From NCBI GenBank assembly GCA_045837725.1, contig JBEWZL010000266.1, positions 434,001 to 498,000 of the forward strand: a DNA stretch of 64,000 nt, written 5' to 3'. The notes under the pieces were generated by a model. That model was not told where the DNA came from. It saw only the letters and a list, made by a program, of their open reading frames with translations, and made no database searches. The DNA is from Vermamoeba vermiformis (taxonomy: Eukaryota). Every line of letters starts with the position of its first letter. Positions within the stretch are counted from its first letter, which is position 1. The position numbers and the translations under genes are program-made. Of this stretch, positions 641 through 46,635 are shown piece after piece.

Positions 641-3600
641 ATGGACGAAAGATCGCAGGATGACATTAAGCGAGAGCTAGAGAAGCTCCAAGATTTGTTC
701 AATTCAAATCTGATCTTAAAAGAAGAGTTTGACCAAAGAAGCACTGAATTATTGTCGACAAAAAGTGTAAGATATTTATAGTTATTATTAACGATACAAT
801 CCATTCTCGGCTTGGTGTAATTTTAAATTTCCTGGTAAAATTGGCGCGGGTGTTAAAAATTATTAAAACGCTTCTATCGCATTTTAGGATGTGCACTTTT
901 AATATTACTATTATTAATAATATTTTTTAATCGCTTTTTAGGTGCAAGATCCAAAGCCGGTTTTAGCAACCACCAGCCCCAGCCCGGCAAGTAAAACTAA
1001 GAAAAAGCTGCCTAAGGATCCCACTTGCAATGAGCCTGTATGCTAGCATAATGTTTGGTTTTTTGACAAGTACTTACCGTTGCGTGGCAGGCGGAAGTGC
1101 ACGAGGATTTCAGCTGCATGTTGAATCAATCGAACATTGGCTTGAACAACAACAAGTTCTTTGTGATTCAAGTGCTCACTGATGGCTCCAAATACTTTGA
1201 ATTCGCTCGGTGGGGTCGTGTCGGGGAAAGAGGCCAATCAAAATTGACACCGTTCACCGACCGTACTGCTGCTGAACAAGCTTTCAAAAGAAGGTACGTG
1301 CTGGAACTTTCACATAATTCATTATTTTTTAACTATCAGTGGCTAATATATTCGTATCAGATTCCGTGACAAAACTGGAAACGAATGGGACCAACGAAAG
1401 AACTTTTCTGCAAAACCTGGCAAATACACGCTGCTTGAAATCGATTACGAGGATAATTCGGTAACTAATGATAATAATTCGTTCCTATTATTTTCTTACT
1501 GACGCCCTTAAAAGTCTCAATTACCTGCTCCGATGAAAGTCGAGCCTTCATCAAATCTACCTGAAGTTGTTAGAGTCGCTCTGACAGAATTGAGTGATGT
1601 CAAATTATACGAGAAAAGTAAGGTTTAGCTCAACTTGACGGTTATTGATATTTTGTTGCAGTTTTGGAGTCACACGAGATCGACGTGCGTAAGATGCCTC
1701 CCTCTAGACTTAGCAAGAATGCCATCGAAACTGCCCGCGAAATTTTGATGCAACTAAATTCTGCAGATACCGATCAGCAACGCAGGGAACTTTGCAACAA
1801 ATATTACACAGTTATTCCGCACAATTTCGGATTCCAGCTCCCACCTCTTATCACCAACGTGTATCCTCACGTAGTTAAACTCGCTGTACTTGAAGATGTT
1901 ATGGAAGCTATGCGTGTGTTGGAAAGCGCACGTGACGAACCAAATATGAATCGCCTTGACGCCCTGCTAAAGAAACTTGACTGCGACTTGGTGCCCGAAG
2001 AAATTATCGTCAGACCTTTAATAGACCAACTTGCAGGCCCTTCTGGTGTCAACCCAACCGGCAAGGTTGTTTCAGCCTTTGCTGTCAAAAAACACGACAA
2101 CACCGCCTTTGCTAAACACGACGGCAAATATAATCGACAATTGCTGTGGCTTGCGTGCTCTAGCATGGCAGCAGTACTGCTCACTTTGCATTCTGGTGCC
2201 AGAGAATACGACCGAAAGTACGGCAAAAGAGGTAAGACCATCATTTTATTTTTACATTAATTTTTGCTTCGTTCTGACTTTCTTTTTAGTTTATTTGACG
2301 CCCAACATTGAAAACGCATTCAATTATGCAAACATCCCAACTGAAGCGACTTACATGGTGCTCGCTGAAGCAGTACTCGGTAGAGAGTACGAAATCCCGG
2401 AAAATCAGCTCTCGATTCCAACGGGACATCACGACTCAGCGGTTTCAAGAGGTCCCGAGCAGTTTGAGACCGAATACATGTAAGTAATTTACTTACAATT
2501 CATCAATGCACTTGGACTAACGCTGCTTACACAAGGTTCTTTGACGGACAGAAAGTTCAAATACCTATTATTAGCGCAGTGTACAAGCGCGGCAGATTCA
2601 CTGAACACCTCATTGCGGATCCGAGCCAAGTTCGCGTTAGATACTTGGTTAAAGTTCAGCCAATTCAGAGCCCACCTGAACCTAGTTCCAATCCCGTGCC
2701 TGTATTTACGCCGAGTAGCTTTTCAGTCATGCCAAGTTTTGGTGGCCCTCAAGTTCAAACTTTAACACCGCCTACCCTTGCTGCTCAACCAGCTTCTGCT
2801 GCACGTAAACGTGTCGATCCTCAATGCAATCTGAACGGTGTAAGTATAATAATATCAAGGTGTTGTTTGTTATCAACTATGGCATTAACAAACGGTAATC
2901 TAGGTGGAAGTTTACGGAGATTTCAATTGCATGTTGTCTCTTGTGGGTGCGTTTGCCACGGCTATGAACAGCAAATTCTTCGTCATTCAGCTGCTGACTG
3001 ACGGGCGCGAATACTACGAGTTCACTCGCTGGGGTCGTATTGGCCAGTCAGGGATGTTTAAGATAGTTACGTTCGATAATGCAGCTGCAGCCGAGCAATC
3101 GTTCAAACGGAGGTTCGTTACGTGTAATATATCGAATTGTCATTTAGCTAACTTATTCGATATCAGATTCTCCGACAAAACTGGAAACGAATGGGACCAA
3201 CGAAAGCACTTCTCTGCAAAACCTGGCAAATACACGATGCTTGATATGGAATACCAGGATGATGATGTGGTAGACCTCGATAATTTGCTCACAGAAACCA
3301 AAAATGTCGCCAAGACCACAAAGACGACTGCTCCGTCTGTTTTGCAGCCACTTCAACTCCAACCAACAGTGCCTTCAGTACATAAATACAAGGTCGATTC
3401 TGAGTGCAAACTTGATGGGGTAAGTAGACAGCTACCGATCCAATGAATTTGAGCTAAAGTACTGATGCTGTGCCACAGGTTCAAGTCCACGAAGATTACG
3501 CTTGCGTCCTTAATCAAACAAACATCGCTGCAAACAGCAATCGGTTCTATATTCTACAAATGCTCACCAACCAAGCCAACAAGTTTTGGGTGTTCAGTCG

Positions 3601-6600
3601 TTGGGGCCGCGTTGGAGAAACCGGACAAAATGCCCTTCGTCCATGCGATACTTTGAACGCTGCTGTTGCGGACTTCAAGAAAAAGTAAGAAATATTGACA
3701 ATATGCTATAAGTGTGCTAATCTTATGCCGTTAATAGGTTCAAGGAAAAGACTGGCAACGATTGGGCAAGCAGAAAGAGTTTCGCGGCAGTCCCGGAAAA
3801 ATACGTGTTGCTCGAGATGGATTTTGACACGCCTGCGCCATTAGTTCAACCACAACAAAGTGCTTTTACTTTCGGAGGTCCAACGACGACGACGTCAGGT
3901 GCCCAATCCCCTGGTGGATTTTTCTTCCCACCTCAGATGAACAATAACACTGGTACATTCGGAAGCCCCGCACTCCCCACTACTTCATTGCCACTAAATC
4001 TAAACATCGGCCAACCCAATCCCACCCCTTCGTTTACATTTGGCGCAAGCTCTGCACTCCCTGCTACTTCCAGTCTGTCAACTCCAACGACAGTCGAGCC
4101 ACAATATACGTTTCCACCATCATTTGGTAGCGGAACTCCGGGTCCTTACGGCCTCCCATCTGCACCTCCACAATCGTCTTCTGCAAATAATCCAATTGAG
4201 TTCAAGTGCTTGATTATCGGTGACGGAGGTGTTGGCAAAACCACTTTTGTCACAAGACACGTAAGTGATGTAGTGCGATAGAATTTATTATACTCAGCTC
4301 TAACTTTATTATTATTACAGCAAACCGGAGAATTTACTCGTCAGTATAATCGTACGTTTGATTTTTAAAAATAGCGACCAAACTAACTTTTCAAACGTAG
4401 CCACTGTTGGAATGCGAACGACCAAAATTCCTTGGTTTACTACTCGTGGATCAATAACTTTCAATATGGTCGAAGTCGGAGGGCAACTCCAACACCGGCC
4501 AGAAAACATCGACGATATTTTGTAAGCCTCGTTTTACTATTGTTTTTTCACTATTTTGCTAACTTGGCGTTTTCAGTGTTGGAGCACAATGTGCTATTAT
4601 CATGTTCGACGTTACAAGCAGAGTAACTTACAAAAATGTTCCGCTGCATTACCGCGACGTCGTGCGAGTTTGTATGGATATTCCTGTCGTGCTTGTTGGC
4701 AACAAGGTAAAACTTTGCCTTTTTAGGAAACCAGTACTAACGATGCTTATTTCTAAGGTCGATGTGGCCGATAGAAAAGTGAAGCCTCAAACGATCACTT
4801 TCCATCGCAAAAAGGTAAGAAACTTATGTAAAATTGCCTTATTTGGACTCAACTAATGATGTTTCCGAAATAGAACTTGCAATATTATGACATTTCAGCG
4901 AAGAGCAATTATAATTACGAAAAGCCGTTCCTGTACTTAATTCGCAAATTGCTCCAGTAAGAAAATATCACAATATTTCTTGCAATTCATTGACACTAAT
5001 ACTGCGAATCTTAGTGACCCCAACGTGTACTTCGAGTCCGCACCCGTTTTATTGCCTCCCGAAATTTTACTGAACAACACTATTGCAAGTCCACTTGAAG
5101 CAGTTGACGACGATTTCGATAATGATCCGGAACTGCCTGCCGAACAGCCCGCGAATCCTCCTCCGAAGGCTTTGAGTGACATTAAAAAGGTAAATTATAT
5201 GCATCTTATTAGCAAAGAGCTAATTGCAATGTTTTTTTGCAGTTTAAAGTGTTGCTTGTTGGAGATCCGGTCGGAAAAACTTCGTTTGTGAAAAAACTGC
5301 TAGCACAACACTTCGACACCAAATACTCACGTAAGTCATCTTATATAATTTTATACGTTTTAACCTTATTTATTAAGCTACGCTTGGTGTTGAAGTTTAT
5401 TCCTTTAAAATTGAAACGAAAAAAGGCGAGAAACTCGAGTTCAATATTTGGGACACTGCTGGACAAGAGAAGTTTGGTGCATTAAGAGATGGCTATTAGT
5501 ACGTATTATTTATAATATAACGATGATCTGATATTAATACCTTGCAGTATCATGGGCAACGCAGCACTGATTTTTTATTCTGTCGAGTCACAAATAACGG
5601 CTAAAAATACCAAAAATTGGCACAGAGACGTTACCCGGGTTTGGTAAGAAAACACTCAATAATAACATTAATTATTAATATTAATATTAATTTTTACATT
5701 AGTGTCGATGTACCTATCGTAATTTGCGGAACACAAGCAGATTTGCCTGAAGAAGAACATCACGTGACTATTGAAAACTTCCCGGTTCCTTCTTTTGTAA
5801 GCCTCAAACAACATTTTTTTTCACGCACAAGGCAAGATTTTTAATTTTCTTTTGCCGAAACAGAAAGAAAAGTATCCGATGATGGAAGTATCGGCCAAGT
5901 CAAACTTGAACATTTACGAGCCATTCATTGAACTAGCGAGAAAGTTGCTCAATGATCCAGAACTCGAATTCAAAGAGAAATTTCCCTTACCAGTCCTTAA
6001 ATTCGCTGCTAAACCAACCGAACAAGGAGACAAGAAGACTACAGAAGATTCTCCGAGTAGCATCAGCCAACAATTCAACCAATTGAATTTGGGTGACGCC
6101 CCGTCTGGCCCAACCGGATTCACTTCGTTCCCAGCGGCCAACAACAGCCCGTTTTCCCCTAGCGCGGTTTCAAGTACGTTTGGTCAAGTGCCACTGATGC
6201 TAGGAAACCAACCAGCGACGTTTGGTTCGCATGTTCGATTCACCTCTTCTTCACAACTGCCAACTTCTTCTTCGTCTCCCTCGCAGTTCACCACACCTAG
6301 TGGCTTCAAACTGACCGTGTCTCCTTTCCCTCGACCAGTCGGTGGATTTACGCCGAACTCGTCTCCTTCGCAGTTCCCTCAACCAGTCAGTGGATTCACA
6401 CTGCCGAACTCGTCTCCTTCGCAGTTCCCTCAACCAGGCTTTACAATGCCTACATCTCCTGCGGCTCCTACATTCAGCTCACCTACAACAAGCGGCTTCA
6501 CAATGCCTAGCAATCCTGTTCCATTGCCGCCTACTCCAGGACCCACAGTGTCTCTTCAATCAGACGCCGCGAAAAATAGCAAGCTCACAAGTGCGTTAGA

Positions 6601-9262
6601 TTTCCTTGAAGTGGTCCAGAAAACGTTTGTCAATCGCATGTCAGTTTACCAGGCCTTTTTGGACATTATGAAGGACTTCAAATCACAACTGTAAGTTCCG
6701 AAATTCATTGATGGTATCTCATTTTAAGTTCAACGACTAACTCTGCTTTAGGATTGATACTCCAGCGGTTATCGCAAGAGTTAAAGAGCTGTTCAAAGGT
6801 CATCCCAAGTTAATTCTTGGATTCAATACGTTCTTGCCTCCTGGTTACACCATCGACAGTTCTGAACTTGAAACCGAAGAACAAGAACTAGAACAACAGA
6901 AAAGTGACGATGAAATTGACAAAGTTTTAACTGACCAACCAAAAACAGCAACAAATGTAGATTTTAATAGGGCTCACACTTATGTGGTGAAGATCAAAAA
7001 CCGCTTCGCGAACCAGCCTGAAGTCTACAAACAGTTTTTGGATATTTTGCACAACTGTCACAATCAAAAGCATCCTATTCCTGAAGTGCTCGAGCAAGTT
7101 TCTGTGCTGTTCAAAGGCCACGAAGATCTGATCGAGGGATTCAAAATATTTATACCAGAAGCCCCCACGCCTAACAAAACTGCCGAATTGGCTGTAAGTA
7201 CTGAATAATTTTATAATTCTGCTCACTTTTTCGATTTAAACGTTGCTTAGAAACTTATCGAATTGAATGTTTAATCGAATTAACTGATTTATTAAGGTAC
7301 CGCAACAGCCCGAGACTGGCGAGTGGCACCCCGTTGACAAATCGCCGAAGTTCCGCGGTGGCCAAGAACTGCGCCAATATCAAATCGATGGGCTCAACTG
7401 GCTGTTGTTCTTATGGACCCATCGTCATGGCTGTATTCTCGCAGATGAAATGGGTCTTGGCAAGACAATTCAAGCCATAGCTTTCTTGAATCACCTCGTC
7501 ACCGTCAAGTCTACTCATGGCCCGTTCTTAGTGGTAGTGCCACTTGCCACACTCTCCAACTGGCAGCGTGAGATCGAGAGTTGGACGGAAATGAGTCTTG
7601 TGTTCTATCACGGTGACAAGAATACTCGTGCCAACATCCGCAAGTCCGAGTTTTTCCGCCCAGGCACAAAAACACCAAAATTCAATGTGCTGTTGACTTC
7701 CTACGAGTTTTTGGTAACTGACAACAATTATCTCGCTGAGATTGATTGGCGCGTGGTGGTCATTGACGAGGCTCACCGAATCAAAAATTCACAGTCAAAA
7801 TTGGTGGAATCTTTGCGCCAGTACAAGTTCGATCACCGCGTGCTGCTCACTGGCACGCCCATTCAGAACAACGTTGAAGAGCTGTGGGCGCTGTTGAGCT
7901 TTATTGAACCTGCAAGGTTTGTGTCCAAAGAAGAGTTCACGGCTGAGTTTGCAGATCTGCAAGAACCTGAACAAGTCCAAAAGTTGCATAAACTCATGTC
8001 CCCTCACATATTACGCAGGTTCGTATAACAACTTTATATTAGAACGCCCGTTCAATTGGCACTAACTATGTTAATGCAGATTAAAATCGGAAGTTTTGCA
8101 AGAGAAATCCATTTCTGCGAATGTTAGCCTGAACCAACCACAGCCCTCATTGTTCGGTCAACAGCCAAACCCACCTACATTTACATTCGGCAACACAGCT
8201 CAACAACAGCCCTCATTGTTCGGTCAACAACCAAACCCGCCAACATTTACTTTCGGCAATACAACTCCTACGTTGTTCGGCACTGCAAATCAAACTTTGC
8301 CACAACCAAATCCCGTTGCTTTTACGTTTGGCAATACCAGCCAACAGCCCCCGTTGTTCGGTCAGCCAAGCCCTTCGGGATTTTCTTTTGGTGCTCCGAT
8401 GCAACAAGTCAACGCCGCACCTGGACCTGTGTTCGGTCAACTGCAACCTGTTAATACGACACCAGTAAGTTCTCTCTAGTTGTAAGTCTTCAATGTAGTT
8501 TTAACCTTTTTACGTCAATTCGCAGACGTTCAAAGTGATCGTTGTCGGTGAAGGAGGCGTTGGCAAGACATGTTTTGTTGACGGGCTGCTCGGAAAGCAA
8601 TTTGAGACTAGATACATCGGTTAGTAGTCCATTGCCTTTAGTTAGTTATCAGCACTAATAGTGGTATAACAGCTACTCTTGGTGTCAGTGTCAATAGCGT
8701 GAGCAGATCTTGCACGAACGGTAAACAAATTGTGTTCAATTTATGGGACACGGCCGGTCAAGAAAAGTTCGGAGGCCTGCGAGACGGATATTAGTATGTA
8801 GATTTTATTGTCATATTAGGAAATATTTATTAACGACAACTCTTAGTATCGGAGCAGATGCCGCGATTATCTGTTATAGTGTTGATTCTGAAGTTACAGC
8901 CAAACAAGTCAGCAAATGGCACCATGACGTTCGCCGAGTATGGTAAGTGCACTAAAATCAGATTTCCTTATTTGGACATGATTACTAAATATGGCTATTT
9001 TAGCGAGAAAGTTCCCGTTGTGCTAGTAGCGCTTAAAAAAGATAATGATCACACTTTCGCTGCCGAGAGTTTACCTTCGCTCGAACCTATTAAGGTAAGG
9101 CAATTACCATATTTGGTAATCACCCATTTAACCATGCCTTTGCAGGAGGAGGCCGTCGGTCACTTCGAAGTCAGTGTTAAAATGAATGAAGACATTAATG
9201 CGCCGTTATTGGCCCTTGCAAAGGCATTGTTGAACGATCCGAATCTGGCTTTTGACAACTAA
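641..9262 (+). CDS. Giant multidomain protein (~31 exons, ~2,250 aa): SHOCT - WGR - PARP_reg - degenerate PARP catalytic - WGR - WGR - FG-rich - Ran-like 1 - Ran-like 2 - PAH - PAH - SNF2_N (CHD-like) - FG repeats - Ran-like 3
   Basis: From ATG 641 ([20 protein letters not shown]) I traced about 30 GT..AG introns with compatible phases and no in-frame stop until TAA 9260-9262. Motifs: three xRWGR[VI]G WGR domains (~1091-1450, 2904-3255, 3479-3825); PARP_reg [14 protein letters not shown]-like [10 protein letters not shown]; Ran-type [24 protein letters not shown][AG][19 protein letters not shown]; Sin3 [38 protein letters not shown]2 [23 protein letters not shown]. Confidence 0.85.
6322..6437 (+). 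repeat. Coding tandem repeat (FP[RQ]PV[GS]GFT(L)PNSSPSQ) in the linker between Ran-like 2 and PAH1
   Basis: Near-identical units containing ccgaactcgtctccttcgcagttccctcaaccag occur at ~6353 and ~6404. Confidence 0.85.
8141..8265 (+). repeat. Coding tandem duplication of a 22-aa FG unit ([19 protein letters not shown]...)
   Basis: cagccctcattgttcggtcaaca starts at 8141 and again at 8207 (66-nt period). Confidence 0.9.
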
Positions 9263-9516: not shown

Positions 9517-10381
9517 TTATATTAACTTGCACTTTAGCTTGCCGTTCTTGACCTTCTTCTTTTTCGCATCCGCAGAATTGTGACCGGGCAATGTCTTGCG
9601 CACTTCACGTACCAAAGAGAAGAATGCCTCTTCAATGTTCTATCAAAACAAATAAATTAGATTCGATTCGCTTAAGCAAAATGTAATAAAAACGCGTACA
9701 ATACGGCGTAACGCTGAGGTTTCGAAGAAAGGCGCCTTGTATCGTCGAGCAAGCTCCTCTCCCTCAGCAGTGGTCACTTGTCTCTCGTCTTCGAGATCGG
9801 ATTTATTGCCGACAAGCACAGCAGGCACCCAATCTCGTTCCTTGGCTCTCAAAATTTGGTCGTAGAAAGAATTAACTTCATCGAAGGAACTACGGCTGGT
9901 AATAGCATAGCAGCACAAGAAACCTTGGCCTGTACGCATCTAGACGACAATCGTAAGTATCGACATAAGTGGATAATAGTATTTCTTACGTATTGGTCAA
10001 GCATAACAGAGAAGTCCTCTGGAAGAAAAAAAGGTTCAATATTTAAATCCCGAATTAATTATTATTGAAATAGTAAAATCAGCGAGCAAAAATTACCGTG
10101 TCGCGCAGTGTCTGTAATCTCCAATAAGCAAATTTCATCGTCAACGTGGAATTGTTTGCGATATCTAGAATTTCAAAGTTTAGTTACCCCTTTATAAAGT
10201 CCACATTTAGGCGTCTAGGCGTCAAAGATATTACTATAAAATTAGGTTTAATTATGTGCACTTACGAGTCTTCAATGGTAGGATCGTAAGAACTGATAAA
10301 GTGGTTGGAAATGAGCTGGATCGTGCAAGCGGATTTACCAACACCTTCAGCACCAAGGACAACGATCTTGTATTCGGTCAT
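9517..10381 (-). CDS. ras: Ras-family small GTPase, 5 exons, with non-canonical G12E/G60R/Q61H and CAAX box CKLI
   Basis: Spliced product: [78 protein letters not shown]...GNKSD...[23 protein letters not shown]...[15 protein letters not shown]. The effector loop YDPTIEDSY is intact. Confidence 0.95.
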
Positions 10382-10553
10382 TATTATTATTGATGCTACT
10401 ATACCTTGTGCCATAATAATGGTTAAAAATGGTTATGTTGTTCGGTAAGAAATAAACGCGCTCTGATTGGCCCAAATAAAAATAAATCAAAGTGTCATGT
10501 GTCACCCTCTAACGTTACGTAAACAAAAACATTTATATTACATACTTTGGCTA

Positions 10554-13066
10554 TTAAATGCGCTCAGCGTAGTTAGTCGGGAACCAACCAGTCACACCGT
10601 TCTTAGTGGCCGTGAACCACGTGTCATCCGCGTTATCAATCTCCAAAATGTCACCTTCCATCACGTGCAACTCGCCAGGATTTTCAGCAGGGAATTCGTA
10701 CAACACTCGCACACGTGGCTTTTGAGGTGCTAATCATAACGTTAATATACAGCAAGATGGATTAAAAATTTCCAGATTTGGATGTGCGTACCGTGAGGCG
10801 GAGGAGTGGTCGGTGGCATAGGTCTGTTGCCACCAGGAGTAGGCAGTGTGCGTGTAGGAGGCTGAGGAGTACCACCAGTATTCATACCAGGCGGTGTCGG
10901 GGGCTGCTGTCTCGGAGGCACCATCTTGGGGTTACCACCGCCCATTCCGCCCGAGAGACGTCGCTCTGAAGGTTGATGGCTAGGCAAGGGCAATCCTCCT
11001 CCTTGATTAGGCACGACATTAGGATTAGCACCCATTCCTGATAAGCGGTTAGAAGATCCGTGTGTTGGAATATTAGCCATGCCTCCATTGGAGACACCGC
11101 GAGGAGGTGGCGCCGGGCCGCCGGGCTGCATCATGCCTGTCGAGGGCTGGTGTGGGACACCTAAGACACGTGTCAGAATGTAGTTTACAGCAGAAAAAGG
11201 AGATCCATATTTAAAAAATAATGGGCACCTCCGGCGGAGCTCGAATCCGCGTCTCCGGAGTGAAAGAACGGTATTCTAACCAACTAAACTACAGTGGCAC
11301 CCAAAAAACAATTTAGCCCCAAATGGACCAATCAGCGTCAAGCAAAAAAAAGTAATGAGGGCGACGTGATTCGAACACGCAACCATCGGACCTGGAATCC
11401 GCCGCTCTACCGTTGGAGCTACGCCCCCTCACTTGAAAGCGAGCAACCGAGAACAAACGAAGTCGTCAAAAAGAACGAGCGCATGCTCGGATCTACGTTG
11501 CCAGAAGTTCAACTTACCAAAGCCAGGCTGAGGAGCTCCGTAGCCGGGTTGAGGGGCGCCATAACCAGGTTGAGGAGCGCCGTAGCCAGGTTGTACGCCA
11601 CCATGTCCAGGTTGAGGAGAAACACCACCGTGTGTTGGTTGCGGGTGATGAACGGCACCGCCAGGACCTGGTGGGGGAGGAGGTGGGGGAGGGGCAGATC
11701 CGCCACCGAGGGTTGGTTGCGTGGGAGGAGGCAAGGGATGTGCTGAAGGTTGATGAGTAATCTGTGGCTGTGAAGGTGCGCCTCCTGCTCGATAAAGATC
11801 AGCTATGGACACCTGATAAAACGATGGCGCGTGTCAAACTTACCGCCGCCACCTTGCTGTTGTCTCAATTGTGCCAGTTCTGAATCGATTTGACCAATCT
11901 GCTGGTTGCTGACTTGAGCACTCTTAGCATCGCCTGATCGTTCGTAGGCTTTAGACATTGAATCCAAAGCTTCTCGTTGTTTCATCAAGGATTGGATCTT
12001 GGCGTCAACCTCTGCTGGTGACAAGTGAGCATTCGACGCTGGCTTGCCGCTTGATGGTGCAGAGACGTGGGCTACTGGCACATTCTGCGTGCATTAATTC
12101 ATTAGAATACTTGCCTAATAAGGAAATATTGCAAAAAGTATCGAGGCCAAAAAGTCAAAAAAAATTGCGTTTAAACTCTTCCTCGTTACAAAATAAATAT
12201 GACAATCAATACTTACAGCTACGAATGCCAATTTGATCTTAATATCGCCCGTGACGACGTCCTTGTCTTTGCGTCGCATTAAAGGGTACCACTTTTCTAC
12301 GGGATTGCCAGTGCTATAAGCCTCGTGCAAATCACTTGATGGAATTGAAAATTCGCCCATAAAATCATGGCCACCAAATCTGGATTATATTTCGATATTA
12401 GAGGCTATTTTTAGACTATGTAGCGTAAGAACTGAATTTAGTTTGTTTGGATCCGTACTTATCCCAATCCTTGCACTTCATATCGACGCGCATGCGATCG
12501 TCAACATTTCTATTTATAATTCGGTTAATTGATCGTTCATGAAAATGAAAGAGCTTGCTAATTTCATCTTTTTACTTACTCGAATGAAAGAGACTCGTTC
12601 CATTGAGGATTCTATATTAAAATAAATAATGAGAATATTTCTCGAGCGAAATATATTCAAAAGGAGCAGTAGAATAGAATTCCAAAAATACCCGGATTTA
12701 CGCTGCGTAAATAAATGATAATTTCAATTGCTAGCTGAATGTGGTCTATTTTCCATACCAGTGTTTGCATAATTTTCTTCGTCTTCTTTTTTTGGGCACC
12801 GACCGTTACGATAACGTAAGGATCTGAAAAACCTATAATTTGGAAGCAATGATTGAGTAATTATATTTGAAATAATATTCTAATATTATTTATTACCTGT
12901 CTTATCTTTTGCGGCAAGATCTCGGCCTTCAATAACTACACAATAAAAATAAATTTGTTATTGAAGGTCTGGTATAGTATGTATGTCATCCTGCCTCTTA
13001 TATATACGTCTAAAATATAATTAAATATTATCAGAGCTTACCAGTAACTGTTAAAACTTTCGCCAT
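10554..13066 (-). CDS. C2 domain - HR1-like coiled coil - Pro/Gly-rich region - SH3 protein
   Basis: N-terminal C2 (VIEGRDLAAKDKTGFSDPYV...TLNPQWNE...DWDKFGGHDFMGE), helical segment KIQSLMKQREALDSMSKAYE, polyproline and PQPGYGA repeats, and a last exon encoding SH3 (RVLYEFPAENPGELHVMEGDIL...TWF...GWFPTNY*). Confidence 0.88.
11226..11298 (-). tRNA. tRNA-Glu(TTC)-like gene with imperfect stems (possible pseudogene), intronic
   Basis: GCCACTG TA GTTTAGTTGGTTAGAAT A CCGTT CTTTCAC TCCGG AGAC GCGGA TTCGAGC TCCGC CGGAGGT G. The T arm pairs fully, but there are two anticodon-stem mismatches and one acceptor-stem mismatch. A T-run lies downstream. Confidence 0.65.
11356..11428 (-). tRNA. tRNA-Trp(CCA), intronic
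   Basis: GGGGGCG TA GCTC CAACGGTA GAGC G GCGGA TTCCAGG TCCGA TGGTT GCGTG TTCGAAT CACGT CGCCCTC A folds as a full cloverleaf and is followed by a T8 Pol III terminator. Confidence 0.93.
11523..11617 (-). repeat. 21-nt coding tandem repeat (PQPG[YH]G[AG])
   Basis: Translation shows PQPGHGGVQPGYGAPQPGYGAPQPGYGAPQPG. Confidence 0.85.
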
Positions 13067-21017: not shown

Positions 21018-23299
21018 TTACAATAAAAATACAATAATGAGCAACAAAACTCCGCTGCTCAATCCAATTTTAGCTGAAGAATTTTGCGGTCCACGTTTTC
21101 CAGGAGCTGCGGGCTTATTACTAGCAATAGGTGTATTACCGGTGTTCACTTCCAATTTAACGCAGTTAAATCCGTCGCCTTCATAGCCATCATTGCAACT
21201 GCATTCGAACGAACCAGGTTTGTTTTCGCAAATAGCATTGGCGCAGCACGGATTAAATTCACATTCGTCAATATCTGCCCAAAAAAGCATATTAGCGGAA
21301 TTATTCATTTAGTACAATTAACGGATCTCGATACTTACCAGTACATCCATCAACGCCTTCACCGGTGCCAGTAAAACCTTCGAAACAAGTGCAATTATAT
21401 GACCCAACGACGTTCGTGCAGTTAGCGTAATCGCTGCAAGGATTATCGACCAAACACTCGTTGATATCTGCAGCAGAAAAATTAGACTTAAGTGTATGTA
21501 TTAATGTCACCAGGAGCGTACCTTGACAGCCATTTTCACCAATGCCATCACCACCGTAGCCACTCGGACAAGTACAAGTGAAATCTCCAATGGTATTGTC
21601 GCAAGTGGCGAGAGGAGAGCAGGGAGTATTCAACGAACTGCATTCATTGACATCTGATGGAAAATATGTCAACGCCAGGGTGCTCATTTACGGGTATAAC
21701 TTAACATACCTTGACATCCGTCGGGGCCAATGCCATCACCATCATAGCCAGCTGGGCAAGTGCAAATGAACGAACCGTTGTTATTCGTACACTGCGCGTT
21801 TGGTGCGCACGGCGATTGGTCGCATTCGTTGATGTCTGGTACGAATAAAATTAGCTTCGGACAGCTACTTTAAGCACCAACCACGACGTACCTTGACAAC
21901 CGTCAGGACCTTGTCCATGACCTGAGTACCCTTGATGGCAAGTACAAGTATATGAGCCATTAGTATTCGCACAATCGGCTTGTGGTGCGCAAGGAATGGT
22001 CGTGCATTCGTCGAAGTCTGAAAGTTAAGTCTGATCTGCAGCCCGGATCTTAATGTTTTTTGAACGTACCTTGGCATCCGTCAATGCCTATACCATCGCC
22101 AGTATATCCATTGTTACAATTACAAGCAAACGAGCCATTCAAGTTCTAGATCCGAGCACGGCGCGTTATCGCATTCATTTACATCTGCAGGCATTAGTAT
22201 CGCTTTAAGAAGAATACTATATGCATTATTATACTCACCTTGGCAACCGTTCTCACCGATGCCAGAGCCAGTATATCCATCGAGGCAGTGGCATTCGAAA
22301 GATCCATCGAGATTTTCGCAGGTAGCATCCGGCGAGCATGCATTTAATGCACATTCATTTACGTCTAACAAGGCATTAATGATACTATACGATGTGAATT
22401 ATTATGATTGTCACGTACCAACACAGGTACCATTACCATCACTTTGGTAACCTTCCACGCATGTACAACTGTAAGATCCGCGCAAGTTGGTGCAAGTAGA
22501 GTGGGCTGGGCAACATCCAAGATCGCATTCATTAATATCTAAAGGAGCCATTAGTAATTTAAGTCATAGAAATATTTTAAGCGGAAGGAAAATTTCGTAA
22601 CGGAATTTCCTAATTGGAAAAAAAACTTTTGTAATTACCTCCGCACATTCCATCCGAGAACTCGTAGCCTTTACCGCAAACTTTGTAAGCAATCTCATCG
22701 ACAGCCATCAAAAAGGCAGAGAATTCGATTTTTGAAATCAGATCGCTGATAGCTTGCACTTGAACTATTCGATAATCATTTGTTATCGCTGTATTTGCGG
22801 GAATAGTAATGCAATTAAATTTAACACCACCGGTGGTGTACATAGACAAGGTTCCAGTTGCTCTAACGTCGTTAGCAATTCGCAAACTGAATTGGTAAAT
22901 TGGCGGATCGAAGGAGATGTAGCTCGTCGAAGTTGAATCTATAGCCAAGAAATAGCCAGGTGTAGTAGACCCTCCATTCCAATTTTCATTACCCATCCAA
23001 TGCCCAGGATTAATGCTGAACCAATAGTTCCATAACAAGCTCGAACTTCCGCCGATCGCAATAGTATGGCTGGCTGGAATTAAAGACGAGTTTAACATTA
23101 CGTATTCAGGGCTAGAAACAGAATATTTCCAAGGTTGTCTGACTGTGAAGCCTTGATCGTCGAAAGTAATTTTTCCATCGAAATCCGATAACTCGGTGTT
23201 GACTACGGCAGCCGCGAGAACATCGGTTACGCAAGTACCAAATGTAGGAGCTATAATTCCTAGAATAATAAGAGTTAAACAGATGGCTCGAAGGAGCAT
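21018..23299 (-). CDS. Cell-surface protein: signal peptide, ~200-aa N-terminal domain, eight calcium-binding EGF exons (one frameshifted), C-terminal hydrophobic/GPI-like tail
   Basis: Repeated phase-1 exons D[IVF][ND]EC...C...A.C.N..G[SD][FY].C.C..G[YF].G.G....C; signal peptide [17 protein letters not shown]-terminus [17 protein letters not shown]. Confidence 0.9.
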
Positions 23300-34200: not shown

Positions 34201-34389
34201 GGTCTAAAAATATCTGAAAAATAATGTTAACGTAACGGAGAAAAGAAAGCCTTAAAAAAATACAAAGGAACTTTCTTTCTTCTGTTGTGATATATTAATT
34301 TAACTCCTTATTTCATTAATCCAACCCGTTATTATTTGTTAAAATAAACCTTTATTATTACCAAAAAAACACTTCAGTTATTCTGTTAC

Positions 34390-35822
34390 TATTCTACAAA
34401 CCCGGGCGCCGCCCCGGCGCCGGCCCCGACTCTGCCCTGCCTCCCCCGCGGGCGGGGCCCCCCGCCCGCCGCGACCCCGCCGCCCCTACTTGCTCGGCTG
34501 ACAGGTAAGTATGTTGCTACGATTCTTCCTCCGTTATGAGAGACGCTATTTTTGCGTTGCATTCCTATACTTATCGGAAATGATATTAATTGGCAGATCG
34601 ACTTTTTTTCTTCGGGCAACGGGACGATGACCGTTTTCCTCCGCCGGATTCTTTTCTGGACTTGATATCTGTCAGAAGACTTCTCCTTGAACAAACTGAT
34701 TCTTGATCTCAGCCCACATTTGTCTGTTGTGGGGAGTTGACTTGGTTGTGGTCGAGAGGCGCACGGGTTGGTCTGTGTCTGCTGCTCTTGCCTTCGTGGT
34801 TGTGACGAGTTTTTTTGCTCGTGCTTGGTCGGGAGGGCGGTTCTCAGTGTTTGACACGGTGAGTGAGAAGCTCGCTTTACTGTATAATCTTGGTAGGCTC
34901 TATAAGTCTGATTGTTTCTGTTCCCCGCAGCATTGTTATAGTCACTACTGAGAAGGAGACTGATGGAGAGTGGGGACGTGGAGAGGATGGGGCAGCCTAG
35001 GGCGCTGGGGCTTGGTGTTTGTGGGTGGAGCTGTCGTGCGGAGGGGGACGTGGGTGCGGAGCGGTGTAGCTGGGGGAGTGGGGGAGCGGGCTGGGTGGGG
35101 GTGGGGTTGGGGGGGTTTGAGGGGAGGGGGGCGAGTGTGGTGGTGACTGTGTGGAGGTTTGTTTGTGGGTGTTGTGTGTTTGTGTGGAGGAGTGGAAGGA
35201 TTTGTGAGGAGGGAGTGCGGGTAGTGGTGAGATAGAGGGACAAGAGGAAGGGAGGAGGGTATTTATAAGAAGCTTAGGAGAGAGACAGTGAGTAAATTGA
35301 TAGCAAGGGTAGTGTGAAGGCAAAATTAGAGGGCAGCTGAGGGGAGAGATTTGAGAGAGAAAAGCGTAGGGAGTAAGAAAAAGGTAATAGAGTGAGGAAT
35401 GGCGGTACGATAAGGTGAGGAAGCGGGTAAGAGAAGAGGAAGTTTGGCATAAGGAGGGTTGGGGAGGGAGAGAGGAAGATGAGGAGATGCTGGGTTATGG
35501 GGAGCGAAGAGGGAGTAGAGAGGAGGGGAAAAGCTGGAGAGGGGGGAGTGGAGAGGGGTAAGTGAGAGGAGAGAGAAAAAGAGAGAGATAATGTAAGAGA
35601 GTGGAGAAGTAGTGGAGAGTTAGAGGTTGGAGATGAGTGGTAGGAATGGCGGTGTGGGAGATTATTATATTATGGGAGGGGGAGGGGGAGAGTAGGAAGG
35701 GTGGTGGTGGATGCGGGGGGAGGGTGGGGGGGATGGGGCTGGGAGGGGGTGAGTAGGTGTTGTGTTCTGGGGGGAGGGTGGGGCGCTGGGCTTTAGAAGG
35801 GAGACTGAAGCTTGGGATTAAC
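34390..35822. other. Anomalous low-complexity block (GC-rich start, then strongly G/purine-rich on +); possibly low-quality sequence
   Basis: Composition shifts abruptly from the flanks, with many G-runs, no periodic unit and no spliceable coding model. Confidence 0.6.
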
Positions 35823-38261: not shown

Positions 38262-41200
38262 TTAATTGTTATTGTTATTTGCAATCAAAGTGCCAAAGCT
38301 GCTACTTCGAACGAGCTTTGAGTGACTTCTGTTCAACATGACTTGACCGTGTTGTTTTGCGCCAGTGTTGCGAACATAGAACTCGTGTTCAATCGTGTTT
38401 TTGATCACAAAGCGCACCACTGTCACTGGCTTAGTTTGACCTTGCCGTTGTGCTCGTCCAATTGCTTGATTCTCATACGCTTGTGCTTCTTCTTTTGTGC
38501 CTGTCATTGGGTCTATCATCATGACATTAGCGGGCTTCAAAATGATCGTCTAATGAAATTTCATACCCATCAAGAGCACGTGACTCGCTTCGATCAAGTT
38601 GGTTCCTGACGCGGCTTTACTCAAGCTCAAAAGAATCACTTGCACGTCTGACTCATCAGCTTTGAACTTCTTGAGTGCTTTGCTCTTCTTGTACACGTTG
38701 CTGAGACATCGAGTTAGTCAGGTGATATCGCGCAAAATTTGGCGATATGTCGGCCTGTTTTGAAGAGTACTTACCCTTCAACCATGCTTGAATTGATGTC
38801 GTTCTCTTCCAGCAATGCTGCGATCATGTCGAGATAGTCGGTGAACTGCGAGAAGATGATCACACGCGTGCCAGGTTCTTTGGCAAACAGCGTCTGAAGG
38901 TACCCGACCAAACTTGCCATTTTGGTACCGTAGTTCTCGATCCAGTAGTCTTTAGTATTCTAAAGACAATAGCATTAGTTTTCGGCGAATTGAATAAAAC
39001 TGATAAAATTTAATCGCTTACATATTCAATCTTTGCCGTGTCTCGTGGTTTCTAGTCGATAATATTAATGTTAGAATTATTTCCTTTTATAGTAATACCA
39101 AGCCACTTACGATATCTTGGAACAATTTCAGAAGTCGTCTGTGCTCTTCCAACATTTTTTCATATGCATTGAGGTTCTTTTTGTAGTCCGCCAAGAAACG
39201 AGTTGCCGTTTGTTTGTACCAGTCATCAACTGTTGTTTTTTTCAATTCGGTCTCGTAACTTTTTTTGGTCTCTTTGTGTCCTTCAATTTGATGGTTTACT
39301 GTGTGAATAGCACTGAGTTTCCTTTTGATCATGAATTCTCTCATCTCGTGCAAAGTGCTGCCCCAGTCATAGTTTAACTTGCAACACAGTTCGCGAACTG
39401 GATCTTTGCGGCCATGAGAATAATATACAACTCGGTTCTTCGCATTGGACACAAGTTCTTCGTAGATTGCTGCTTCAATCGGAGTAAAATCCAATAACAC
39501 AACTTCAGGCTTGGTCGCGACCATTTGATACTCTTCCTTGACACTTTCCTAATTAGGAAAAAAAAATGAAAATTAAACTCTGACGAACAAAAACTCAGTC
39601 GATAAATCTTACTTTGGTATTGCGCCAGACCAAGTTATCCATCAATAACTGATTCAACACGTTCCTATTTAACCAATCAGAGTCAGGAGATTGAAATATA
39701 AAGTCCCGTTCCACGTGGGTTGAAATTTCTTACTCTACGTAAACCTCAGTCAAAGGCCGACAATAATGGTGTCCAACCCAATTGTTGCGAATAAATTGTT
39801 CCTGTTCTGGGGTGTATTCGTCATCGTGAAGAGGAATAGCCCGATTAGTGAACATGTCCAAAAACGTTCTAACTCCTTCAAGTGCTTGACTATAGGCAGA
39901 GCGGAACAATTAATATTGATGTCTGACTAACGATGTTACGTACATTTTAGGAAAAGGAGTGCCACTCATGTACCACGAGAACGTTCGTTGCAAGTAATAA
40001 ATGACATCTACGAACGCCAAGTTAATTTCGATCGAACAATATTACCAAATTAGGAAAGTCCTACCCATCGTGAACTCATCGCCAATGACTTCGTGACCTT
40101 CGTCCATGACAATGCGGTGCCAATGAAAGTGATCGAGAATCACTCCTTTGATCTTCTCAGGCGACTTGTCCTTCAGCTCTTCAAGCATTTTATCGACACG
40201 GTCAATGCGATCGTGCGGTGCTGCTGCGTCCATTTTGATTTGTGAGCCGTGACTCGGGTACGCAAGATAATTTTTGTTTTTGAGCAAGTTGTACGTCACA
40301 ACAACGACATCTAATGCACGGTTAGAAGTTTCTTTTGTTACATTCAATTTTGAGATCTTACCAGCATCGATGATTTGTTGATAACTGATCTTCTTGACTT
40401 GCGCAATTGTTGTCATTTGAATCACGCTCAACTTCGGTTCTGAATGTTTTTCAACTTCTTTCACCCATTGGTCAACGAGATGGTTCGGACATAGTACTTG
40501 AAGTTCAATTAAGTAAGTCTCGTTTTGTCACTTTGCAGCTCTACTACTTACCAAGAGTAGCCTTGGTCGCAAAGTACGGGTCACTCTTCGGCGCTTGTTT
40601 CATCGGGTTTGAAAGCATCAAGCCAAGCATTTCGAGGGTTTTGCCAAGACCCATTTCATCAGCGAGCACTCCGCCTTTCGGTTTGAACGCCAAGTTGTGT
40701 TCACTTACGTTCTCAAACAGCACGAGCTTCTCTTCTTGCATCGTGTACTTCACCAAGATGTTCGGCACTCCTGTGTCAAGCAGCGGAGATACTTCGAACT
40801 CTGTCAAGACACAACAAAGTGTTAGAGAGGGTTATCTTATTATGTTATACTTACTCTCATCAGCCTCTTGTTCGGTCGTGACCATCCAATTGATTGCGTT
40901 GATTTGATAGTTGTGCAATTTGACACCTGTCAACGATTGAGGCTGTTCGGTGATGACTGGAAGAACCTAGAAACGAACATAAATATCTAATGCCTTGTAA
41001 TTGTTTGAATTTTACGTACAGTGGGCAAGTAAGACTCCATAGGCTTGAAGTATTGGTCGATCGGTGTTGGAGCTCGAAATTTCTCCGAAAGTTTTTGCAG
41101 TGCAACCTGTCTGAATGGCATGGCTATCGCAACTCCTTCCCCTGCTCTAATGTTTTGTTCAACCCTTTGCAATTTGGAAAATTAACTCGTCGGCAAGGTG

Positions 41201-42122: not shown

Positions 42123-44495
42123 TTAAAAATGCATGAAAATCGCACCACCTAATACAGAAACGCTTAAGGAAAGAACGCTTGTCACACTAGCTACACCGTT
42201 ATTCATCGAGCTTCTTGGACTCGTCAAAGGACTGCTTGGGTCTTGTCCAGCTCCATCGGTGATCGCAGGCACTGCAAGTTGATTTCCGCAATTGCAGGCA
42301 TCACTTGGTCTTGGAACATTAGCACCTGTGTCGACAGGAGTTCCATCGAACTTTGCAATGTAATATCCTCCTCCACCAGTGCCAGCTACGATAATTCCTT
42401 CATTTCCTGGTTTCGCGCGCAATGTGTTAATCGTTTTCATGCCTAATCCGTCGGCGGCGAGCGTCCACGTTGGAGCATCACTTAAGAGATTCTGTGTGGT
42501 CCAAGCACCTGTGGCATCGATCACATCATCAAAAGGGTCTTTGCGAGTACCAATAACTGCTTGATTAGGGTTCGCTGGGTTGATAGCAATGTCGCTGACG
42601 TATTCGATGTTGGGAGATCCGCCCCAGCCAACAACTCTCTTCCACGTCCAAGAAGATGAGGCACTATTGTAAGTAGCTCTCCACACTCCATCTTGTCCTT
42701 GGAAATATCCACGAGCAACGGCATAAAGTCGATCAGGCGTGGTCGGATCCATTTCTAGACGAGTGTCACCGTATTGCCAGTTCTTGGGACTGTTGGTCAT
42801 CAGACTGAAGTCGACGCCATTAGAAGTGTAGTAGATGCCTCTGCGGCCAGATAAGAAGAATTCTGTTGGATTGTTTGACCCACGTGAGACGAACCATAGC
42901 AGGCCAGATCCGGTGTTCGCGTCAACGGTATCGTTCAAGGGAATTCGTTGCCAAGAGCTGCCACCATTACTAGTAGTATATAGTCGTCCACTAGCAGTCA
43001 TCCAGACTTTGTTAGCATCAGTTGGGTGCACTAAAATGCCTTGAGGGTACATCCATGCGTTGTACTTGTCCAGATCCGACGGGTAACCTGCTTCACTCCA
43101 AGTCAATCCACCATCAATAGACTTCGCAACGCTGTTGCCATAAGTCCATCCAGGTTGCCCACGAGTCGCATACGCCGTTGTGCCATCAGTGGTAAATGTC
43201 ATGTCCGTGTACCCGCCAAAAGGAGGTAAACCGCTCTTCGCTGCACTTTTCCAGGTCTGGAAATTATCACTGCTGATCCATAATCCATCGTCCATAGCGA
43301 AAGTGAACGATCGGTCGGTATTCACAGGGTTCCACTTGAAGTTGATAGCGACATAGCCAGAATATCCACGTCCTCGCCAGAAATTTGACGATTGGTTAAA
43401 TGGTCGATAAGAACTGCTATCAATAATGGTTTTGCATCCATCTTCAGAGCGGAATATTGTCACCCATGTAGAGATCAGAACACGACTGTCATTCCTTGGG
43501 TCAATGGTGACTTGTCCTGCTTCAAAAGTGAAGTCGAATGCATTTGCAGGTCGGTAGATTTCGGTCCAATTGCCGCCGTTCACTGAACGGAACAGCCTTT
43601 GTTTGTCTTTGTTCATCGCGTAGACCGTGCTCGGATTGCTAGGTGAAACTGCTACATGACGCCAGTTGCCAGATAAAGGAAGCCCGTTGTTGAATGGAGC
43701 CCAACTGTCTCCGCCATTGCTCGTTTTATAGACCCCAGATCCACCAACGGTGACGTACGCAATGTTCGGATCCGTTGAATGAGCTGCAATGGACTCGATG
43801 AACATTGACGGTAAACCAGTGCTGCTAGACTGCCAAGTCCTACCACCATCTTTTGAACGATAGATGCCCTTGTTCAGCACCGAAGCGAGAATAGTCTGAG
43901 AAGTAGATCCGGCCAAGAATGTTGCCGATGCAATGTTGCCTGTCGCGTTGGCGGGTTGAGCAAGCATTGTCCAATTTGCACCACCATTCAGTGATTCGTA
44001 GACGAGACCTTGGTTGCGCAGAGAACTTTCACTTGATCTTCTGCGAGTCCCAAAGAACGACAAAAGTCGGTTAACATTGGTCGGATCAAACAACACAACC
44101 TGCGTAAACGCAGTGAAAGTGGCAAAATCACCATTAGAAGGCATGCCATTACGCATAGAGATCCAATTCTTGCCACCATCTGTTGAACGATAAGGGCCAT
44201 TACCGGTGCCAACCCATACTGTGTTCGGATCTGTCGGATGCCACGTGAACTCTTCAATCATGTAGTTCTGCAAGCCTATCATATTCTGGTCCCAAGTAGC
44301 ACCTCCGTCTAATGATCTTGCAATCCCGAGAATATCTCCGCCGGCTAAAACAACGTTCGAAGCGTGAGGACTGATGGACGCTGCAGTGACGGCACCACCG
44401 ACTCCTGGTTCATATAAAGGACGCCACTGAAGCTGAGCCACAACGATAGAAGCTTGAAATAGGCAAAGCACGAGAGCTGTCAGCAGTACACGCAT
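42123..44495 (-). CDS. Intronless secreted or anchored BNR/Asp-box beta-propeller protein (GH74 xyloglucanase/sortilin-like), 790 aa
   Basis: Single ORF with a signal peptide, many S.DGG.[TNS]W Asp-boxes, GGDILG near the N-terminus (GH74-like position), AMDD, and a C-terminal hydrophobic tail. Confidence 0.88.
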   Translation of the reverse strand: MRVLLTALVLCLFQASIVVAQLQWRPLYEPGVGGAVTAASISPHASNVVLAGGDILGIARSLDGGATWDQNMIGLQNYMIEEFTWHPTDPNTVWVGTGNGPYRSTDGGKNWISMRNGMPSNGDFATFTAFTQVVLFDPTNVNRLLSFFGTRRRSSESSLRNQGLVYESLNGGANWTMLAQPANATGNIASATFLAGSTSQTILASVLNKGIYRSKDGGRTWQSSSTGLPSMFIESIAAHSTDPNIAYVTVGGSGVYKTSNGGDSWAPFNNGLPLSGNWRHVAVSPSNPSTVYAMNKDKQRLFRSVNGGNWTEIYRPANAFDFTFEAGQVTIDPRNDSRVLISTWVTIFRSEDGCKTIIDSSSYRPFNQSSNFWRGRGYSGYVAINFKWNPVNTDRSFTFAMDDGLWISSDNFQTWKSAAKSGLPPFGGYTDMTFTTDGTTAYATRGQPGWTYGNSVAKSIDGGLTWSEAGYPSDLDKYNAWMYPQGILVHPTDANKVWMTASGRLYTTSNGGSSWQRIPLNDTVDANTGSGLLWFVSRGSNNPTEFFLSGRRGIYYTSNGVDFSLMTNSPKNWQYGDTRLEMDPTTPDRLYAVARGYFQGQDGVWRATYNSASSSWTWKRVVGWGGSPNIEYVSDIAINPANPNQAVIGTRKDPFDDVIDATGAWTTQNLLSDAPTWTLAADGLGMKTINTLRAKPGNEGIIVAGTGGGGYYIAKFDGTPVDTGANVPRPSDACNCGNQLAVPAITDGAGQDPSSPLTSPRSSMNNGVASVTSVLSLSVSVLGGAIFMHF

Positions 44496-44698
44496 TGCGA
44501 ATAGTCTGGTGGAAATTTTTGTTATACTCGGTTAACATTTATAGGGTTATTACCTGCGTCGTGTTCTTGCGATGAAATGTGAATGTAAGATTAATGTTAA
44601 AACAAAAACATCGAAATTAACAAACAAGACACGAATGACAGGGGTTTAGCTTACCGATAAAAATACACAGAAAGGCCAACTATTGAGTGATAATTGCT

Positions 44699-46478: not shown

Positions 46479-46635
46479 TGTTCGTGGGCGTGTAAAAACG
46501 GAAGAAATAAGCTTAAACGGGCTTAAATGTTGACACGGGACCAAAATTGAGTCTCGATCTGGGTCCCGTATCAATATTAGCCTAAATACTATCCTTGCTA
46601 GAAGATCAGACGAATAATAATTCCTTTCTTTACTT

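Follow-up and report, generated by a model that had tools for sequence, protein, structure and literature searches.

A putative nuclear scaffold gene of Vermamoeba vermiformis composed of PARP/WGR, Ran-like, Sin3-type and CHD-like modules

Parent families and the modules of the mosaic gene

Clade-1 PARPs (PARP2/PARP3-type) contain a WGR domain, a helical regulatory domain (HD) and an ADP-ribosyltransferase (ART) domain in that order. WGR domains bind DNA breaks, and the catalytic His of the ART domain binds NAD+; to our knowledge, PARP members that lack this His have been reported to be inactive. Ran, or Gsp1, has about 25 kDa and exists as a free protein. Its switch II (Phe72) binds NTF2, as FxFG repeats also do, and its HRKK patch and acidic tail make contacts with karyopherins and RanBP1. 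The targets of FxFG repeats are transport receptors, those of PAH domains are short helical motifs in transcription factors, and WGR domains, the helical domain and the SNF2 N-lobe are binders of nucleic acids or chromatin in their parent proteins. In a stretch of 64,000 nucleotides (nt) of Vermamoeba vermiformis DNA (contig JBEWZL010000266.1 of assembly GCA_045837725.1, positions 434,001 to 498,000 of the forward strand; "the window" in the following), modules that resemble all of these proteins follow one another between positions 641 and 9262. On balance, we slightly favor reading them as one expressed, lineage-restricted gene, a mosaic of modules from nuclear proteins, whose product would act as a largely non-enzymatic, multivalent nuclear scaffold.

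The deduced protein of 2,274 amino acids (aa) starts with a helix, which is followed by a WGR domain, a PARP regulatory domain, a PARP-like catalytic domain, two further WGR domains and an FG linker. Thereafter come the Ran-like modules 1 and 2 (Ran1 and Ran2), a linker rich in Pro, Ser and Thr (P/S/T), and two PAH domains, and the C-terminal part consists of an SNF2 N-lobe, an FxFG linker and the Ran-like module 3 (Ran3; Table 1). Pfam and the PDB were searched exon by exon, that is, with unspliced pieces, and this scope applies to all domain assignments given here.

Table 1. Coordinates of the mosaic gene and its modules in the window
Feature	Position	Strand	Evidence and remarks
Whole mosaic gene	641..9262	+	30 exons and 29 GT-AG introns; 2,274 codons and a stop codon
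Exon 1: start codon and 42-aa amphipathic helix, SHOCT-like (lead only)	641..766	+	Atlas feature search
WGR domain 1 (aa 75-172, one intron)	1091..1451	+	Pfam WGR 1.7e-17
PARP regulatory (helical) domain	1545..1963	+	Pfam PARP_reg 7e-15; PARP1 structures E 5e-15
PARP-like catalytic (ART) domain	2096..2662	+	PDB alignments to PARP1, PARP2
WGR domain 2	2904..3257	+	Pfam WGR 1.6e-13
WGR domain 3	3479..3828	+	Pfam WGR 5.7e-20
FG linker 1: 120 aa, 4 FG, 1 charged residue	3832..4191	+	Shares exon with WGR3 end and Ran1 start
Ran-like module 1	4198..5039	+	P-loop, NKxD, SAK retained; switch II rewritten; acidic tail after it
Ran-like module 2	5243..5980	+	P-loop lacks one residue; intact switch II; TQxD instead of NKxD
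P/S/T-rich linker 2: 187 aa, 2 FG, 6 GF	6011..6571	+	Shares exon with Ran2 end and PAH1 start
PAH1 and PAH2 (Sin3-type)	6581..7154	+	Pfam PAH 3.4e-30, 2 stretches, exon 6752-7193
SNF2 N-lobe only (CHD6-9-like)	7297..8104	+	Pfam SNF2-rel_dom 1.6e-68, model positions 1-219/290
FxFG linker 3: 119 aa, 9 FG, 1 charged residue	8105..8461	+	Pfam Nucleoporin_FG, below cutoff
Ran-like module 3	8529..9259	+	Intact P-loop and switch II; LKKD instead of NKxD and SVK instead of SAK

The best PDB matches of the PARP block were PARP1, PARP3, and PARP2, and a WGR domain and a PARP_reg domain lie upstream of the catalytic domain, as in clade-1 PARPs. However, the His of the H-Y-E triad is replaced by Leu (codon 2150-2152), with Leu-Ala-Cys aligning to His-Gly-Ser of PARP1. 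The Tyr position of the triad appears to be retained by inspection of the translation, and so does the Glu (codon 2603-2605), which lies in a C-terminal strand that aligns weakly to PARP2 (E 0.87). The middle ART exon had neither a PDB nor a Pfam match in the single-exon searches. The N-terminal third of the protein resembles a clade-1 PARP and would in part qualify as one, but fails at the His. Unlike clade-1 PARPs, the mosaic has two WGR domains after the ART domain and then about 1,450 aa of unrelated modules. Term look-ups in the main texts of two surveys of PARP architectures revealed no fusion to a GTPase, SNF2 or Sin3 (PMC2964712, PMC4245714).

Pieces of all three GTPase modules matched the Ras family of Pfam, and in the PDB searches 44 of the 45 matches of the Ran1 exon and the first 44 rows for the Ran2 exon were Ran/Gsp1. 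The C-terminal helix with a 'DP-x-LEF'-like end is also common to Ran/Gsp1 and all three modules. Unlike Ran, which is free, the mosaic embeds three copies in one chain, and in each of them a different G motif, or switch II, is altered; no module has complete G1-G5 motifs together with a canonical switch II. The motif states were read against canonical Ran stretches in the PDB alignments, with the usual motif definitions. In addition to the states listed in Table 1, Ran1 contains NKVD and the HRKK patch, Ran2 contains DTAGQ and a switch II with one substitution, and Ran3 contains DTAGQ, a switch II identical to that of Ran, and insertions in its C-terminal half. Judged from these alignments, Ran2 and Ran3 are devoid of the guanine-recognition motif and have kept switch II almost letter for letter, although TKxD-like motifs in other GTPases can still bind nucleotide. 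Because Ran1 on the one hand and Ran2 and Ran3 on the other hand retain complementary surfaces, the modules may have been sub-functionalized, and their motif states suggest Ran mimics that are frozen in certain states. A frameshift as the origin of the odd switch II of Ran1 was considered and rejected, as by eye the other two frames of 4458-4560 contain no Ran-like switch II. The three Ran-like modules are 35-49% identical to one another and the three WGR domains 39-61% (61% for WGR1 versus WGR2), and therefore the repeats seem to be old. Degenerate-motif GTPase folds as structural or binding modules of a large protein are also known from the scaffold pseudo-GTPases of the p190RhoGAP type, which belong to another GTPase family; the mosaic has neither a GAP nor another catalytic partner domain.

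The other blocks are likewise incomplete. The best named matches of the SNF2 exon were of the CHD7/8 type with at most 52% identity, and the N-lobe, which contains the GxGKT and DEAH motifs, is about 50% identical to the CHD7/8-type members of the CHD6-9 remodelers. In contrast to these, the mosaic contains no chromodomain and no Helicase_C in any exon: the exon before the SNF2 exon encodes the two PAH domains, the exons after it encode FG repeats and the Ras match, and the SNF2 piece ends past 'LRR-x-K', where the FG repeats follow. Two PAH domains, the first of which has its N-terminus in exon 5864-6690, are shared with Sin3, but no exon matched the Sin3 co-repressor/HDAC-interaction region or the C-terminal region of Sin3. 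The linkers are poor in charge and their FG motifs are mostly of the FTFG, FSFG and LFG kinds, as in the FxFG nucleoporins Nsp1/Nup62; the Nucleoporin_FG score of linker 3 is just under the Pfam cutoff (30.9 versus 32.2 bits). Unlike these nucleoporins, the mosaic shows no pore-anchoring coiled-coil domain in the per-exon Pfam searches. Judged by their sequences, the blocks of the Ran, Sin3, CHD6-9 and FG-nucleoporin types appear to be fragments, none of which shows the full definition of its family.

An active multi-enzyme would be a different interpretation of these modules, in which a DNA-break-activated ADP-ribosyltransferase is combined with nucleotide-switching Ran-like regulators and an SNF2 N-lobe that works together with a partner. 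This seems improbable to us. It is consistent with the retained WGR-HD-ART order of DNA-dependent PARPs, with the seemingly retained Tyr and Glu positions (by inspection, in a weak alignment), with the intact P-loop and DTAGQ of Ran3 and the intact P-loop, NKVD and SAK of Ran1, and with GxGKT and DEAH in the SNF2 piece. However, the NAD+-binding His is a Leu and the adjacent Gly an Ala, the middle ART exon has diverged so far that it matches nothing in Pfam or the PDB, the second helicase lobe is missing from the gene, and one G motif is broken in every Ran-like module.

Gene model and transcript evidence

The gene model was worked out junction by junction from the plus-strand open reading frames (ORFs) of the window. 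When the stop-to-stop ORFs are chained via the 29 introns, a single coding sequence of 6,825 nt results, which starts with the ATG at 641, the first ATG following an in-frame stop, and ends with the stop codon at 9260-9262. The first intron has 175 nt and is the biggest non-coding gap within the gene, and the other 28 introns have 44-103 nt. Retention would stop or shift the frame for 27 of the 29 introns, and the GC content of the exons is 0.462 versus 0.304 for the introns. The splice signals are rather uniform: the donors are GTAAG (18), GTACG (3), GTATG (2) and six others, the acceptors are CAG (13), TAG (11) and AAG (5), and 18 of the 21 GTAAG sites on the plus strand of 641-9262 are donors of the model. 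A mini-exon of 31 nt (4321-4351) is needed in the model and restores the Ran motif downstream of the P-loop; the same letters are read in the same frame in a relative (P0264, see below). The Ran motifs fall in canonical order across introns, and the SNF2 motif composed of 'LRR' and 'LK-x-E-V' runs across intron 8019-8079 into the FG exon.

Unlike modules are joined within single exons at three sites, namely the PARP C-terminus and the linker in exon 2536-2839, WGR3, the FG linker and the P-loop of Ran1 in exon 3738-4260, and the C-terminus of Ran2, the linker and PAH1 in exon 5864-6690. The exon ORFs that open Ran2, SNF2 and Ran3 contain no ATG ahead of their first motif. Because of the continuous frame, the strong intron signals, the three in-exon junctions, the absence of an ATG before the Ran2, SNF2 and Ran3 motifs, and the genes that flank it on both sides, 641-9262 is very probably a single gene. 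The flanking gene on the left encodes a HIT-domain protein, the C-terminal end of which lies directly upstream of the mosaic gene at 217-423 on the plus strand (Pfam HIT, 2.1e-06); since it ends at 423, about 215 nt are left for the promoter and the 5' untranslated region of the mosaic gene. On the right, a Ras-family gene is convergent with the mosaic gene (9643-10432, minus strand).

Transcript evidence comes from contigs of a near-identical organism (X1), which differ from the window by 0-3 positions per 142-207 nt in several pieces. The X1 contigs skip exactly the introns 2232-2289, 3685-3737 and 5190-5242 of the mosaic gene. The first of these falls inside the PARP-like catalytic domain, the second lies within WGR domain 3 and is also skipped by four reads of a further run (X8), and the third bridges the tail of Ran1 to Ran2. 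Between 644 and 9243, X1 covers 14 of 25 depth bins with a depth of 0.16-3.2, and its indels relative to the window are of 3, 12 and 5+1+3 nt, so that all sums are multiples of three. In the neighboring Ras gene, where its depth reaches about 790, X1 confirms four introns as CT..AC joints (9640-9699, 9940-9989, 10019-10096 and 10165-10265). X1 represents spliced RNA, because it skips these four introns as well. RNA reads of the runs X7-X9, which bear the same species label, match the window between 300 and 10600 with 90-95%, at conserved GTPase patches only. As 91-97% of the aligned material runs on unlike the window, X7-X9 are uninformative on the mosaic gene, and from their sequences these runs can be regarded as not derived from the source organism or a close relative.

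An earlier, sequence-only reading of this DNA had proposed one spliced frame for a protein of about 2,250 aa, and the model, which contains no internal stop, bears this out. The junction introns that it named at 2840-2903, 5190-5242, 8019-8079 and 8465-8525 were reproduced, and 7194-7297 becomes 7194-7296. Its claim that several junctions lie inside single exons agrees with the three found here, and the per-exon searches recovered the modules that it had listed (PARP/WGR, three Ran, FG, PAH and half a CHD remodeler). Its description of modules as partial or catalytically damaged also stands for several of them, given the His to Leu exchange in the PARP block, the SNF2 piece without Helicase_C and chromodomain, and one G-motif deviation per Ran-like module. 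The same is true for its statement that no described protein combines these modules, as none was found in protein searches and in literature searches that covered the main texts of the PARP surveys.

Alternatively, two or more adjacent genes or transcripts might have been misjoined, for example a PARP/WGR-Ran1-Ran2-PAH gene that ends at 7206-7208 and a subsequent SNF2-FG-Ran3 gene. Read-through at 7194 indeed reaches a stop after four codons, the introns 7194-7296, 8019-8079 and 8465-8525 are without transcript evidence, and the relative P0121 opens with an ATG just upstream of its SNF2 exon. Nevertheless, we regard a misjoined model as quite improbable. The gap between the two parts is merely 103 nt and opens with a perfect GTAAGT donor, no ATG precedes motif I in the SNF2 ORF or the P-loop in Ran3, P0121 and P0265 are probably located on one 10.5-kb contig, and the junctions upstream of 7194 are either inside exons or confirmed by X1.

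Relatives of the mosaic gene and its neighborhood

A comparison of the SNF2 exon with 1.84 billion representative proteins of any length gave only two, P0121 (88%, 249 aa) and P0124 (64%, 202 aa, from a JGI contig), that were closer to it than ordinary CHD proteins. Both are ORFs of exon size, and they stop at the boundary where the SNF2 exon ends. The best 120 of 6,447 longer matches (421-2,000 aa) were ordinary CHD/SNF2 proteins with at most 52% identity, and by eye the Ras, PARP, WGR and PAH families were absent from these 120. A full-length annotated counterpart was not found in the protein searches with the SNF2 exon. A metagenome scan with the SNF2 alignment, which did not recover the contigs of P0121 and P0124, kept 80 loci, and each of these had just an ordinary SNF2 match, with none of the other modules. 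Scans with the Ran2-type alignment yielded 81 matches in genome contigs and 119 in viral contigs, none of which was confirmed, and in literature searches no PARP-Ran, Ran-PAH or tandem-Ran protein came up.

Further relatives exist for other exons. P0264, from an NCBI contig, is 95% identical over the WGR3-FG-Ran1 exon. The Ran2-linker-PAH1 exon matches P0265 with 76% identity over 98% of the exon, and both have the same end boundary; 41 of 43 residues are identical in the end of Ran2, 32 of 38 in PAH1, and 142 of 171 in the linker, which has extra gaps. P0265 and P0121 each occur on only one ENA contig, which has 10,535 nt in both cases, and it is probably the same one. Two more distant ORFs, both from JGI contigs, are similar to the C-terminal half of the Ran2-type module, with 39 of 49 (P0266) and 61 of 79 (P0267) identities, compared to 45 of 118 and 32 of 110, respectively, in the linker. 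P0267 retains a variant G4 motif, TKxD, and continues in the same ORF through the linker to a further Ran P-loop. Tandem motif-variant Ran-like modules are thus conserved in a small group of organisms, which is known mostly from metagenomes.

The order of modules in P0267, an ORF from a JGI metagenome, is the reverse of that in the window, since the Ran2-type module precedes a Ran1-like P-loop. Relatives of the mosaic may therefore have more modules or another order. An Atlas search with P0267 returned generic small-GTPase clusters only.

The sequence-only reading had also suggested an integrated-decoy array, in which inactive copies of nuclear hubs serve as bait for pathogen effectors and an N-terminal SHOCT helix oligomerizes the bait. 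The integrated decoys known to us sit on immune-receptor chassis (NB-ARC/NACHT, LRR, TIR). It is true that a number of modules are incomplete or altered in their catalytic or nucleotide motifs and that they stem from conserved nuclear hubs, and the nearest named Atlas clusters of exon 1 are SHOCT with a score of 0.84, which is rated as a lead only. However, none of the 20 exon pieces scanned contains NB-ARC, NACHT, LRR, TIR, a death fold or another receptor or signaling domain, and the Ran2-type module is 77-80% conserved in distant relatives, which looks like purifying selection rather than the turnover of an arms race. Furthermore, exon 1 had no Pfam match to SHOCT even at E<=10, its sole Pfam match being GvpG with 22.5 bits, below the cutoff of 30.6, and the label SHOCT was not confirmed. 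In the SHOCT-defining paper, the domain is reported for few eukaryotes (trypanosomes, Naegleria, Dictyostelium) and the authors' own experiments gave oligomerization no support (PMC3581485), so the proposed role as oligomerizer is unsupported as well. Taken together, we consider the decoy array very improbable.

Hardly probable at all is a functionless chimera that arose by exon shuffling and is drifting toward a pseudogene, because, although the modules are partial and damaged in their motifs and the transcript depth is low (2-4) beside a highly expressed neighbor, the frame of 2,274 codons with 29 well-formed introns is intact, the X1 indels occur only in multiples of three, relatives with 95%, 88% and 76% identity have intact exons, distant ORFs retain the Ran2-type module at 77-80% while the linkers diverge, and the Ran modules, at 35-49% similarity, indicate that the array is old yet still open.

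A tblastn search with the mosaic protein found no paralogous modules elsewhere in the window. A second, unrelated SNF2-related gene is present at 39087-40527 on the minus strand (Pfam SNF2-rel_dom, 3.4e-11), and it had no tblastn match to the mosaic protein. The features described in the following are also on the minus strand. At 10554-11833 an exon with an SH3 domain is followed by long Pro/Gly-rich ORFs of low complexity, and at 34389-35669 long ORFs in two frames overlap, which are rich in Pro, Ser and Thr and likewise of low complexity. Calcium-binding EGF repeats were seen at 21301-21687 and an ABC transporter with several exons at 46600-52300; the ABC2_membrane_3 match of the latter is under the Pfam cutoff. 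An uninterrupted ORF of 802 aa with Sortilin-Vps10/BNR repeats (42123-44531) is intronless in an intron-rich region; it is possibly an acquired gene, or simply intron-poor.

The predicted scaffold and its implications

The gene structure, the domains and their motif states, the spliced expression and the conservation in relatives could all be observed directly. From these we infer the non-enzymatic state of the mosaic protein, its binding partners, and its nuclear location. The missing His of the ART domain, the missing second lobe of SNF2 and one broken element in each Ran-like module, together with the conservation of the modules, point to binding rather than catalysis. Binding to nucleic acids, chromatin, and peptide motifs would be the task of the block of three WGR domains, helical domain and ART-like domain, of the SNF2 N-lobe and of both PAH domains. 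Surfaces for NTF2, karyopherins, and partners of the RanBP1 or RCC1 type would come from the linkers of the FxFG type and from all three Ran-like modules. A scaffold of this kind would tie the binding of the transport machinery to the binding of DNA or chromatin. Its specific form as a tether between transport and chromatin is possible, but rather doubtful. A scaffold that links DNA-break sensing to the transport machinery, which the sequence-only reading had offered as its alternative to the decoy, would fit the anatomy of the modules.

Several points weigh against a single, non-enzymatic scaffold protein. The X1 contigs carry only the label 'RNA?', their depth on the mosaic gene is 2-4 compared to up to about 790 on the Ras neighbor, and no read or contig of X1 or the other runs spans the whole gene. 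The introns 7194-7296, 8019-8079 and 8465-8525 are without transcript support in X1, and the PAH2-to-SNF2 intron 7194-7296, which has a weak AAG acceptor at 7296, is the weakest link of the model. In P0121 the ATG just upstream of the SNF2 exon lies in sequence that matches the intron here, and a separate SNF2-FG-Ran3 product is conceivable in this relative. In addition, deviations in motifs are no proof of inactivity, and the P-loop and switch II of Ran3 are retained, as the Glu of the ART domain seems to be.

The scaffold reading can be extended to the distant ORFs. The mosaic gene and P0266/P0267 might be the founders of an undescribed family of tethered pseudo-Ran arrays, although this is unlikely at present. 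In such arrays, Ran-like modules frozen in different states would be hard-wired, together with FxFG repeats, to binders of DNA or chromatin, and chromatin or DNA lesions could thereby be given a Ran-state signal that is fixed or, alternatively, a sink for NTF2 and karyopherins. If true, this would be a new use of the Ran system that is independent of the soluble GTP/GDP gradient.

What has been established so far is an unusual, expressed domain architecture, which is conserved in close relatives and has not been found described. Ran is normally a free single-domain switch, and three embedded, diverged copies in combination with PARP, Sin3 and CHD modules and FG linkers occur in no annotated protein or paper that we found. 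The gene exemplifies that exon shuffling can build a gene for 2,274 aa from pieces of housekeeping nuclear genes, and also that gene calling in the style of prokaryotes reduces such genes to anonymous fragments, for example P0121 and P0264-P0267. If the protein works as proposed here, it would be a natural experiment in which nuclear-transport signals are wired to sensors of chromatin or DNA damage, and it would represent a clear case of selection that retains pseudo-enzyme modules.

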